64,000 nt of DNA, taken from positions 5,113 through 69,112 of the forward strand of contig CAYJXA010000002.1 of NCBI GenBank assembly GCA_964373955.1. Direction: 5' to 3'. The notes under the pieces were generated by a model, which worked only from the letters and a program-made list of their open reading frames with translations, made no database searches and had not been told where the DNA came from. Positions 16,065 through 47,533 of the stretch are shown here, piece after piece. Origin of the DNA: an uncultured Methanosarcinales archaeon. Its GTDB lineage: Archaea > Nanobdellota > Nanobdellia > Woesearchaeales > GW2011-AR9. The translations under genes and the position numbers were made by a program. Position 1 is the first letter of the stretch, and each line of letters begins with the position of its first letter.

Positions 16065-16706
16065 GTGGAGGAACATACAATGATACCTGTATTTGCGTTT
16101 GATGCCTATAAAACAATTGTTGATTGTCCTAGCTGGGATCGATTAAAACAAGAAGATCCTGAGGTAAGAGAATTGTTTGAACAATTTCAATCTGACCGGG
16201 CTACTTGGAGCCGGCCTTTTATGGCGAAAATGGATGAATATATTGCACAAGGTAAAGTAGGCGGTGTCGAGGTGCCAGGAACAGTGGATGCACTGGAACA
16301 ACTTGCTGCTGCTGGTTCTTTGGCAGTTTATTCTACTGCAACTGAAAAGTCTCTTCCAATCCTTTTGGAGACCGCAGGATTAGGGCATCTTTTTAGGGAT
16401 CATCGTTTAGTTATTCCGGTTGAGCGACTGGATAATATTCCTAAAACCTCACCCGTGGGTTTTCAAAAGCTCGATGCCTACCTAAAACACCTTGGCTTTA
16501 AGCTGCAGGCCTATGTTGATGATGAATTAGCGGTCATTAGTGCAGGATTGCAAGCAGGAATCTCATTTCCTGAAGATGCTCTGTCGGGATTTTATCATCT
16601 TGATAGAAATGCTGATTTGCAAACGCGAGAATCAGGGAAAGAATACACTCGCATTAGTAAACTGGGTCACATGATTGCAAAATCACGGAATTTTCCACCG
16701 GTTTAG
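16065..16706 (+). CDS. hypothetical, weakly HAD-like hydrolase
   Basis: ORF track. VFAFDAYKTIVD is only a degenerate HAD motif I. The last 20 nt or so overlap the 5' strand of the structured RNA element. Confidence 0.4.
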   Translation: MEEHTMIPVFAFDAYKTIVDCPSWDRLKQEDPEVRELFEQFQSDRATWSRPFMAKMDEYIAQGKVGGVEVPGTVDALEQLAAAGSLAVYSTATEKSLPILLETAGLGHLFRDHRLVIPVERLDNIPKTSPVGFQKLDAYLKHLGFKLQAYVDDELAVISAGLQAGISFPEDALSGFYHLDRNADLQTRESGKEYTRISKLGHMIAKSRNFPPV

Positions 16707-16922
16707 TCAGGTCACTACGTTCGTGACGTTCCTTCGGAACGAACCGGTGGCGTAAGGCTTCGCTCACTCACCGGTTGCGGAGGAAAATTCCGGGACAAGA
16801 AGGGCACTGCCCTTCTGTCCAGAAGGACCCGGTCCTTCTTGGACTCAAAAGGAAATAGCCCTGGGCGAAGCGAGTATCCCGCCGGTCTTTGACTGGTGGT
16901 AGACGATTTCCTTTTTGAGGAG
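16687..16922 (+). ncRNA. GC-rich highly structured RNA element or leader of unknown class
   Basis: Dense nested helices in an AT-rich context. Hairpins at 16711-16727, 16727-16741 (UUCG-type), 16794-16819, 16820-16842 and 16882-16896. A 13-bp long-range helix pairs 16844-16856 with 16906-16919. A 7-bp loop-loop complement pairs GCUUCGC 16757-16763 with GCGAAGC 16865-16871. CCGGUGG 16744-16750 can pair with either 16695-16701 or 16769-16774. Confidence 0.5.
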
Positions 16923-16929
16923 TGAAATT

Positions 16930-17991
16930 ATGAATGAGATCCCCCCCTTGGATAAAGATTGGGTGCATTATCTCACCAGGCCATTTTCGTTACTCGGTGC
17001 TTCCATTTGGCATTCATGGTATGCCTCGGCAGAATTTAAAAATTTATTCTCCCTTCCTGAACCAGATGCCCTAATGGTGGAAGAACCGCGAGGGATAGTT
17101 CGGCATTATCGCTCCAAGACGCAGCTTGATCACTATTGGGAAGCGGGAAGAAAATTGGTTCTCCAAAATCCAGACTATTGTGCGGGGCTACTTTTGGAAG
17201 GGATACGGTTAAATGCTCGAGCAGAACTCTATCTTTCAGGGAAGGACAATTTTCCAAGCTTTCCTGCTGCTATTGATTTCCTCAAAGTGTTATTTATTAA
17301 AGCAACGCTTCTACCCTACCTTGTTTTGAAAGTATTAGACGAATCTGGAAACGTAAATGATAAAGAACTGGATTTCCTCTCCAAAAAACTACGATCAAGT
17401 TCATATTATCACGCATTTATTGACCAGGTCATTGTCCCTTTCAGTATTGAGGGAATATCACCACAAAACCTGCCTAATTCCGCGGAAGTAGTGTCTATGC
17501 TTACACTATCAGAAATTTTTTCTCAACAATGGGATAAGGTTGAAGAGAGGATACATCAGCAAAAAGAAGGAAAGCACTTTATCTACCAAGTTATAAACGG
17601 TAAAGAAAAAGTAGATTGGACGGCTAATGTGGCGAGCATTACTTCCAGCATAGAAAAGGAAAACTTCTGCAATGAAATTAATGGTCAAATAGCCTATCCA
17701 GGCATAGTCAAAGGAATAGCTCGGGTAGTTCTCTCCCTGAACTCATCAAGAATATTTAATCCAGGAGACATTCTCGTTACTATCAATTCCAATCCAGATT
17801 TGCTTCCCATCATCAAAAAAGCATCCGCCATCGTAACCGACGAAGGCGGCATAACGTGTCATGCGGCCATCATCTCAAGAGAACTTAAAATACCCTGTAT
17901 CATTGGCACGAAAAATGCTACCAAAGTATTGAAAGATGGAATGATGGTTGAGATTGACGCTGAACAAGGAGTAGTTAGAATAATTTCTTAA
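16930..17991 (+). CDS. PEP-utilising enzyme mobile (swivelling phosphohistidine) domain protein
   Basis: The C-terminus GDILVTINSNPDLLPIIKKASAIVTDEGGITCHAAIISRELKIPCIIG matches the PEP-utilizer mobile domain with a catalytic His. ATG 16930 is preceded by GAGGAG. Confidence 0.7.
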   Translation: MNEIPPLDKDWVHYLTRPFSLLGASIWHSWYASAEFKNLFSLPEPDALMVEEPRGIVRHYRSKTQLDHYWEAGRKLVLQNPDYCAGLLLEGIRLNARAELYLSGKDNFPSFPAAIDFLKVLFIKATLLPYLVLKVLDESGNVNDKELDFLSKKLRSSSYYHAFIDQVIVPFSIEGISPQNLPNSAEVVSMLTLSEIFSQQWDKVEERIHQQKEGKHFIYQVINGKEKVDWTANVASITSSIEKENFCNEINGQIAYPGIVKGIARVVLSLNSSRIFNPGDILVTINSNPDLLPIIKKASAIVTDEGGITCHAAIISRELKIPCIIGTKNATKVLKDGMMVEIDAEQGVVRIIS

Positions 17992-47432: not shown

Positions 47433-47533
47433 AGCGGGGTAGGGAAGCTAGGAGTACCCGATGGGCTCATACCATTAGGATAAATCTAGTGCAAGAAACC
47501 CATAGATCGGTGGTTCAAATCCACCCCCCGCTA
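47433..47533 (+). tRNA. initiator tRNA-Met(CAU) with a canonical 37/38 intron (26 nt)
   Basis: AGCGGGG UA GGGA AGCUAGGAGU ACCC G AUGGG CUCAUA [47472-47497] A CCCAU AGAUC GGUGG UUCAAAU CCACC CCCCGCU A. A1:U72 and the GGG/CCC anticodon stem are archaeal initiator hallmarks. Confidence 0.85.

Follow-up and report, generated by a model that had tools for sequence, protein, structure and literature searches.

A structured intergenic element of an uncultured archaeon as a candidate dispersed repeat

Several described systems invite comparison with the element reported here. These are the MITEs (miniature transposable elements with inverted repeats), of which the Correia elements or Neisseria miniature insertion sequences (NEMIS) are prokaryotic examples; the repetitive extragenic palindromes (REP) with their bacterial interspersed mosaic elements (BIME) and inverted REP doublets (REPIN); the palindrome-associated transposable elements (PATEs) and the insertion sequences IS200/IS605 with their omega or right-end RNA (reRNA); and, among RNAs, archaeal RNase P RNA and the riboswitches and attenuators. 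The element lies at 16679-16919 (+) of a 64,000-nt stretch (the window) of contig CAYJXA010000002.1 from an uncultured archaeon of the Woesearchaeales, directly upstream of a gene for a phosphoenolpyruvate (PEP)-utilising mobile-domain protein. An earlier note on this DNA had proposed a riboswitch or attenuator of that gene or, failing this, a stand-alone non-coding RNA (ncRNA). We find that the element is conserved outside its genome, has sharp ends and a covarying fold, and occurs in varied gene contexts. At a rough probability of 0.55, we read it as one copy of a dispersed, probably mobile, non-autonomous structured repeat (MITE/REP-like) that has been enlarged by GC-rich hairpin insertions.

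Like MITEs, the element is non-coding, intergenic and dispersed, measures ∼50-240 nt and has sharp ends; it comes in size classes made by internal deletion with the ends kept, is present or absent in close relatives, can have A/T dinucleotide flanks, would fold strongly if transcribed, and often abuts start or stop codons. In contrast to MITEs, its ends do not pair with each other, each pairing with an internal copy so that two foldback units form; it has weak terminal inverted repeats, a minority of copies show a target duplication, there is no known parent transposon, and compensatory change and a wobble strand bias point to selection on a single-stranded fold. With REP/BIME and REPIN sequences it shares imperfect palindromic units arranged as an inverted doublet, apparent selection of the single-stranded hairpin form, an intergenic and probably multi-copy distribution, and the potential to act as a terminator or mRNA stabiliser. 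It differs from them in its large conserved apical domains (hairpins H2, H3 and H5 below), its archaeal host and its apparently few copies per genome, compared with hundreds; no RAYT-type gene was seen, with no search aimed at one. PATEs and IS200/IS605 resemble it in their structured boundaries, their seamless presence or absence without clear duplication, their strand-specific constraints and their frequency in archaea. However, its hairpins stand at the very ends whereas those of IS200/IS605 are subterminal, its extra sequence lies inside hairpin loops and not between them, no tnpA or tnpB is found nearby, and Rfam gives no IS605-orfB or HEARO match.

The conserved unit and its parts

The limits of the element were defined by its relatives. 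When Logan contigs of four metagenomes (X1-X4) were aligned to the region at 80% likeness, they matched only inside 16678/9-16918/9; the flanks outside were unrelated, with at least three different 5′ flanks and at least three different 3′ flanks around 16679-16919. The conserved unit, which we call a clade A copy, is thus 241 nt long. It begins 8 bases before the 16687 at which the earlier note had started, a position that does lie within the folded unit. The sequence of relatives diverges past ...UUUUUGAG. In run X4 variants were present but the window's own flanks were absent, and these variants must therefore come from other genomes.

The GC content of the folded stretch is 0.57 compared with ∼0.36-0.47 in the surroundings, and the plus strand folds at -107.8 kcal/mol (z = -5.5; none of 200 shuffles was as good), in agreement with the first description of the region as GC-rich and helix-dense. 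The minus strand, scored separately, reaches z = -6.6, which is as strong as the plus strand, and no fixed strand is implied. Because the minus strand folds as well, the fold alone points neither to one strand nor to an RNA. All strings and complementarities on which the earlier note had relied are present in the sequence: GGAATTTTCC (16687-96) is complementary to GGAAAATTCC (16782-91), CCACCGG (16695-701) to CCGGTGG (16744-50), for which CACCGG (16769-74) is an alternative partner, GCTTCGC (16757-63) to GCGAAGC (16865-71), and CTCAAAAGGAAAT (16844-56) to ATTTCCTTTTTGAG (16906-19). The last of these had been described as a 13-bp helix and recurs here as H4, with 13 bp and one bulged U. The parts of the window copy and its neighbours, all on the plus strand, are the following (R1 denotes a covariance model built from clade B, one of the groups of relatives described below).

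16679-16919 (+): whole element, clade A copy, with sharp ends in X1-X4; R1 matches 16679-16816 with 24.2 bits, E = 5e-5
16679-16683 (+): 5′ tail AAAAU, kept in clades A and B; UAAUGU in clade C
16683-16696 (+): 5′ strand of H1 (U CACGGAAUUUUCC), which closes domain 1; 13 standard pairs and one A.G mismatch with 16782-16795
16697-16703 (+): 5′ strand of H2 (ACCGGUU), 7 bp with 16742-16748
16704-16741 (+): lineage-specific insertion in the H2 loop, with hairpins GUCAC/GUGAC (16711-27) and GUUCC/GGAAC (16728-40) and the stop codon TAG of the upstream open reading frame (ORF) at 16704-06
16742-16748 (+): 3′ strand of H2 (AACCGGU), overlapping the mid strand CCGGUGG, the alternative partner of 16769-74
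16749-16774 (+): H3 region (GGCGUAAGGCUUCGCUCACUCACCGG), a hairpin that varies; the CACCGG of its 3′ part may pair with the mid strand in clade A
16775-16781 (+): junction UUGCGGA between H3 and the 3′ strand of H1
16782-16795 (+): 3′ strand of H1 (GGAAAAUUCCGGGA)
16792-16842 (+): twin hairpins GGGACAAGAAGGGC/GCCCUUCUGUCC and CCAGAAGGA/UCCUUCUUGG, a lineage-specific insertion between the domains, missing in clades B and C
16844-16856 (+): 5′ strand of H4 (CUCAAAAGGAAAU), which closes domain 2; 13 bp and one bulged U with 16906-16919
16857-16878 (+): variable interior of domain 2, including GCGAAGC, unconserved among relatives
16879-16899 (+): hairpin H5, CCGCCGGU-CUUUG-ACUGGUGG, the most conserved module of the family; 8 bp with two G.U pairs and a separate R1 match (E = 0.7)
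16906-16919 (+): 3′ strand of H4 (AUUUCCUUUUUGAG), with the U5 tract at 16912-16916
16065-16706 (+): upstream ORF, 213 aa, no Pfam family
16930-17991 (+): downstream gene for a PEP-utilising mobile-domain protein, preceded by GAGGAG at 16917-22

Comparison with relatives separates the shared parts of this structure from lineage-specific ones. Some relatives lack 16700-16742 or 16700-16770 and carry a 7-nt loop (UCUUGGA, UCUACGA or UCUCUGA) in place of it; in others GGGAC is joined directly to UCAAAAG so that the twins are skipped (joint 16796>16871, and loose ends), and some relatives also lack 16797-16870. Five local hairpins had been counted in the region and their sequences are all present, but four of them (16711-27, 16728-40 and the twins at 16792-820 and 16819-42) are missing in relatives; as judged from these alignments, the H2-loop hairpins and the twin hairpins are insertions peculiar to the window lineage. 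H3 takes the form GGCG/CGCC in clade B and GUAAGUA/UACUUGC in clade C, while the outer part of H4, UCAAAA/UUUUUGA, is invariant across all clades. The pseudoknot-like link of 7 bp between GCUUCGC and GCGAAGC exists as a complement, but one relative replaces 16797-16870, with the 3′ strand, and clades B and C have no counterpart, which leaves the link without comparative support. The alternative pairings of CCGGUGG do recur in clades A and B, where ..GUGG of the mid strand has a 5′ and a 3′ CCAC as alternative partners; since they are absent in clade C and in the shortest (mini) forms, they are not a defining switch of the family. The helix that was thought to run into the ribosome-binding site (RBS) covers the GAG of GAGGAG, ahead of the ATG at 16930, and only this GAG is within the conserved unit.

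The window copy sits within a co-directional gene pair, with a hairpin and its U5 tract 14 nt ahead of the downstream ATG. It also provides the stop codon of the upstream ORF, whose last 28 nt lie inside the element and whose stop falls in the H2 loop. Excising exactly the element (16065-16678 joined to 16920-17991) places the upstream 213-aa ORF in frame with the PEP-domain ORF, and the joined frame of 561 codons is free of internal stops. A split gene or intron was nevertheless rejected: the upstream protein is unlike all 240 proteins compared, longer PEP-domain homologues included, neither protein is related to a known fusion, and the in-frame fusion is probably due to chance (about 1 in 3). 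The other genes of the window, with the taxa of their homologues, identify the organism as a DPANN archaeon of Woesearchaeota/Nanoarchaeota type. Among them are genes for a TrmB-family regulator, for TGT and for a GatD-like protein, together with tRNA genes that carry long inserts (43405-43582 and 47433-47533, with inserts of ∼103 nt and 28 nt). Both of these tRNAs were detected by the Rfam tRNA model alone; ARAGORN reported no tRNA in the whole window.

Relatives, size classes and a covarying fold

When metagenomes were scanned with both strands of the closing helix, 23 loci were obtained, of which 7 were true relatives. These form clade B (L086, L096, L099, L101, L102, L103 and L105), lie on AT-rich DPANN contigs and measure 105-154 nt. 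Their plan is that of the window copy: an AAAAU tail, H1 enclosing a junction from which H2 and H3 branch, a short linker, and H4 (UCAAAAA/UUUUUGA) closing a domain with H5. Clade C is a divergent copy on the minus strand, L108:2918-3086, which lies between the gene for the RNase P protein Pop5 and the proteasome alpha gene and was located by tracing Pop5 homologues to their contigs. Finally, mini copies of 50-57 nt (L109, L122-126 and L128) consist of the H1 bases, the H4 bases and the linker alone. The sizes thus form a series of 241, 169, 154, 146, 105 and 50-57 nt in which the ends are kept. H5 reads CCACCAAU-CUAUG-AUUGGUGG in clade B and CUACCCGU-CUGUG-AUGGGUGG in clade C, so that a loop of the form U-CUNUG-A is common to the three clades. 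The family is carried by Woesearchaeota-like DPANN archaea of groundwater and wastewater.

No family of Rfam 15 matched the element when the whole window was scored at the gathering threshold, and at E ≤ 10 there was no match for 16500-17100 or for the clade B, clade C and mini loci L096, L103, L108, L109 and L126. A scan of the GTDB species genomes with the 18-mer AAAATCACGGAATTTTCC gave 81 matches, mostly bacterial, none of which extended past ∼26 nt, and no homologue. Identity to AAAATCACGGAATTTTCC reaches 19-22 nt in ∼40 of these 81 genomes (Lachnospiraceae, Oscillospiraceae, Sphingomonadales and others), which suggests a conserved coding or regulatory string unconnected with the element. 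In IMG/VR there were no true matches; three matches to the H5 pattern resemble coding sequence, and R1 was negative on them. The phage and plasmid records likewise held no copy, and a viral or plasmid origin was rejected on these searches. The signal recognition particle (SRP) RNA, 5S rRNA, H/ACA and C/D box RNAs, K-turn or K-loop, and the hammerhead and hairpin ribozyme cores were also rejected, as none fitted the three-clade consensus by eye or matched in Rfam.

We used R1 to compare the clades. It detects the L128 mini copy with E = 7e-6 and scores L108 at 72.9 bits on the minus strand and 41.8 bits on the plus strand, while nhmmer with a clade B and C profile scarcely detects the window copy (E = 4.7). 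MAFFT alignments across clades proved unreliable, and the R1 alignment and hand-checked pair lists were used in their place. Pairs were counted in the model-made alignment of clade B and L108, where 98.1% of cells hold standard pairs. Both sides changed in 11 pairs, compared with 1.9 ± 1.2 in shuffles (0 of 500 had as many) and with 0-2 when the partners were slid by 1-3 columns; few lineages contribute these changes, and the alignment had been fitted to the model. In H1, 6 of 15 pairs differ in sequence from clade B to clade C, with six compensatory double changes, 100% pairing and no broken pair. In H2, U-A and A-U of clade B correspond to C-G and G-C in the window, and a C-G is replaced by U-A in clade C. 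H5 shows double changes across the window, clade B and clade C. Moreover, in clade A variants GGGGG replaces the GGUGG of the mid strand alongside a change from CACC to CCCCC in the 3′ strand. On these sequence comparisons, compensatory changes support H1, H2 and H5. An excess of G.U over A.C pairs on the plus strand (∼12 to 4) mildly favours this strand as the putative selected single strand.

The ends of the element do not pair with each other; each pairs with an internal strand. The whole has a rough two-fold symmetry, in which the outer ends GUCGRAA.. and ..UUUUGAC face the inner ends ..UUYCGAGC-AU-GCUCAAAA.., and H2 beside the left end is mirrored by the similar H5 beside the right end, so that the two ends look alike in inverted orientation (GTCRRAA..CCAC-hairpin-GTGG). 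The good folding of both strands and the R1 scores on both strands of L108 are in keeping with this symmetry. In clade B and in L128 unit 1 (GUCGRAA../..UUYCGAGC) and unit 2 (GCUCAAAA../..UUUUGAC) form an inverted doublet that flanks the palindrome GAGCAUGCUC. This central palindrome is imperfect in clade C, L122 and L109, and clade A has none. An oligo-U tract stands at the 3′ end of every copy.

Genomic settings and the Pop5 neighbourhood

The neighbours of seven clade B copies and one clade C copy are unrelated genes (YjeF_N, glucokinase, an RNase H-like exonuclease, an oxidoreductase, Pop5 and others), relative to which the copies are arranged in sense, antisense, divergent and convergent fashion. 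The copies often occupy an entire intergenic gap: those in L099 and L101 are 4 and 9 nt off divergent start codons, and that in L105 overlaps the 3′ end of a convergent gene. In the wastewater metagenome X14 the contig depths add up to 8-19 at the flanks and climb to 200-530 across the element, and no fewer than 15 contigs split at its 3′ end into differing flanks. The flank depths in this single sample are close to each other (13.1/13.0 for L099, 12.4/11.8 for L101, which was present in one run only, and 11.6 and 11.6 for two contigs that start in the 3′ part of the element), with L102 at 4-6. Such near-equal depths suggest several differently sized copies in one genome.

A presence/absence polymorphism was found between L128 and L129, which are 92-95% identical around the Pop5 start and differ by a single 55-nt indel that is exactly one mini copy, carried by L128 and missing from L129; the flanks are identical at 55/58 and 91/99 positions, and AT stands on both sides. 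A presence/absence difference is likewise seen at the Pop5 start between L109 and L108. Ahead of Pop5 in L109 and L122, mini copies are found at other points and in the opposite orientation. Flanking AT on both sides is seen in L128, L103 and L099 but not in L086, L096, L101, L102, L105 or the window. Small toxin-antitoxin-like genes occur near element copies or Pop5 (L103:155-400 and 811-1104, L116:3426-3854); one encodes a ParE-family toxin by Pfam, and the others look RelE/ParE-like or DUF433-like by eye. A PIN-domain gene stands upstream of the Pop5 locus in L129, which is without an element copy.

Although most copies are away from Pop5, this gene recurs beside the element. A full-length clade B copy lies 100 nt from Pop5 in L096, the full-length copy of L108 separates Pop5 from the proteasome alpha gene, and mini copies in L109, L122-126 and L128 lie between a conserved Pop5 leader hairpin and the Pop5 start codon. 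Each Pop5 gene examined has an upstream TTTAAATA box followed by this hairpin, CAACAGAGAGAAGAGAAAGG..(loop)..TTTCTTCTCA, just before the start codon (L096:1676-1775, L107:2400-2500, L108:2420-2500, L109:1945-2030, L110:3920-4000, L116:3920-4000, L122:3870-3940, L127:160-250, L128:475-545, L129:3020-3095), and box and hairpin may serve the Pop5/exosome operon as a regulatory leader. Downstream of Pop5, several lineages have another conserved intergenic motif in common, AATGGCA..GTTTAATGCGYTGTGTAAGA (L108:3150-3190, L109:2476-2515, L122:4400-4440, L128:995-1020), which may represent either a small RNA or the proteasome alpha gene's promoter region. In L127:189-623 and L129:3001-3468 the called Pop5 is extended at its N-terminus (144 and 155 aa compared with ∼122 aa), likely because of a mis-called start inside the leader hairpin region. 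In the 476-nt gap L110:3524-4000 (likewise L111-L115) there are three A(A/T)TGTCG(A/G) motifs similar to the 5′ end of the element. However, this gene-free gap upstream of Pop5 was rejected as a family member, as it is unmatched by R1 and not significantly structured (z = -1.5 and -1.1).

Readings of the element

The element is built from a pair of neighbouring foldback units that are related by a rough two-fold symmetry. Unit 1 is H1 (GUCGRAA.../...UUYCGAGC) closing a junction with H2 and H3, unit 2 is H4 (GCUCAAAA.../...UUUUGAC) closing a variable interior that ends in H5, and the linker between them is AU, held between the palindromic GAGC and GCUC. Only the H1 and H4 bases are indispensable, and the loop contents can be expanded, as in the window, or deleted, as in the 105-nt and 50-57-nt forms. 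According to the repeat reading, which we prefer, the element would spread, or would have spread, within and between genomes by landing in the short intergenic gaps of compact genomes, and any effect on the PEP-domain gene would be a by-product of the landing site. The selected form would be a single-stranded fold, for which single-stranded DNA during transposition is as possible as plus-strand RNA.

Several observations weigh against this reading. The estimate of copy number per genome is based on equal depth in one sample with no closed genome, and an R1 search with filters off found no second copy in the 64-kb window. The difference between L128 and L129 could be a precise deletion rather than an insertion, a 2-bp AT duplication accompanies only ∼3 of 10 copies, and the end-to-end inverted similarity (GTC...GAC, 40-nt ends) is weak, 1-3 sd over shuffles. 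The loci examined showed neither a transposase nor any other partner, with no search aimed at one. The element adjoins Pop5 in 5 of the 9 distinct Pop5 neighbourhoods examined; because random insertion does not predict such an association, the repeat reading leaves it unexplained. Finally, a genuine RNA gene would be expected to show the extensive compensatory change and the plus-strand wobble imbalance, as well as the TATA-like boxes that four clade A copies, with flanks unrelated to one another, have at about -20 to -30 (∼25 nt upstream).

The last three of these points also speak for paralogous stand-alone small-RNA genes, the main rival and a possible but less likely alternative. Such genes would each have their own plus-strand promoter, end at the U5 tract and make a trans-acting RNA or ribonucleoprotein with H2 and H5 as protein-binding hairpins, having spread by duplication. 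The compensatory changes in H1, H2 and H5, the G.U pairs (two of them in the H5 of the window), the preference of R1 for one strand in L108, the 3′ oligo-U tract and the H5 loop kept in three clades are all consistent with this. However, the sequence occurs in no RNA run, every run in which it was found being DNA; several copies lie 4-9 nt from a divergent start codon and have no space for a promoter of their own; the minis keep the helix bases alone, and one of them is an indel between near-identical loci; and the minus strand often folds equally well or better. The stand-alone ncRNA that the earlier note kept in reserve is thus borne out in so far as the element is autonomous, conserved outside the genome, covarying and absent from Rfam, while the evidence taken together points to a dispersed repeat family. 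These two readings overlap, as a mobile element may also be an RNA gene. A version that we consider unlikely is a new structured archaeal RNA class both mobile and functional, which would recruit or titrate Pop5 or the RNA-processing factors of the exosome/Pop5 operon, or serve as the guide RNA of a DPANN mobile system, with H2 and H5 (CCAC..-U-CUNUG-A-..GUGG) as protein sites.

The position of the copies beside Pop5 raises the further idea, improbable in our view, of an RNA tied functionally to RNase P, either as a reduced and circularly permuted RNase P RNA (H1 as P4, H2 as a capped P1/P2, H3 as P3) or as a Pop5-bound RNA or mRNA-leader mimic. The full-length copies of L096 and L108 and the minis of L109, L122-126 and L128, in 5 of 9 neighbourhoods, speak for it. 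Like the RNase P RNA of archaea, the reduced Pyrobaculum type T among them, the element is a structured archaeal sequence of 100-250 nt that sometimes stands beside Pop5, and its three-way junction would be compatible with a permuted P4/P2/P3. In addition, GAGGAAAAUUCCGGG, found in clades A and B, resembles conserved region I (CR-I; GAGGAAAGUCCGGG), and AAAAUCACGGAAUUUU loosely resembles CR-V, of the RNase P consensus. Yet CR-I and CR-V are unconserved in clade C, where H1 is GGUGUAUUUUCGAG and the CR-I-like string is lost; H1 is a continuous helix of 13-16 bp without the universal bulged U of P4; there is no P1, as the ends do not pair with each other; and the motifs run in the opposite order to those of RNase P RNA, so that a circular permutation would be needed. 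Moreover, neither RNaseP_arch nor RNaseP-T matched the window region, L096, L103, L108, L109 or L126 at E ≤ 10, copies can be as short as 105 nt or 50-57 nt, a multi-copy state is probable, and the majority of copies are not near Pop5. On the clade C sequence, the missing bulged U, the permuted order, the lack of a model match and the short forms, RNase P RNA, including the permuted model, was rejected.

Least credible of all is that the element acts in cis, as a riboswitch or attenuator of the PEP-utilising gene placed in its leader, where alternative helices would expose or hide the RBS. The features that had suggested it are real: the fold has many helices and some exclusive pairings, H4 covers part of the RBS, and the element lies between co-directional genes with its 3′ end and U5 tract near the start codon. 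But no element precedes either of the two nearest homologues of the PEP-domain gene (60% and 52% identity), and riboswitches differ from this family in having a fixed gene association and orientation; here the RBS is outside the unit, no ligand-pocket-like core is evident, and Rfam gives no riboswitch match. Because copies stand beside unrelated genes in either orientation, often on the opposite strand, and because a copy can be present or absent at one locus, the riboswitch or attenuator is unsupported, all the more as its alternative pairings do not extend to clade C or the minis.

For the window itself the outcome is negative, as there is no evidence for a metabolite-sensing leader before the PEP-domain gene. 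Beyond the window, DPANN genomes are tiny and tightly packed, and their non-coding repertoire and small mobile elements are scarcely known. The element defines a recognisable family, with three clades and minis, a fold supported by covariation and no Rfam entry, which is common in groundwater and wastewater metagenomes. It can fragment assemblies, as Logan contigs break at it, and it can be mishandled by gene callers, as in the window, where the upstream ORF runs into it and stops. If the element is mobile, it would offer a handle on an unknown DPANN transposition system; if it is instead a family of RNA genes, it would be a new archaeal ncRNA with a curious link to the gene of an RNase P protein.

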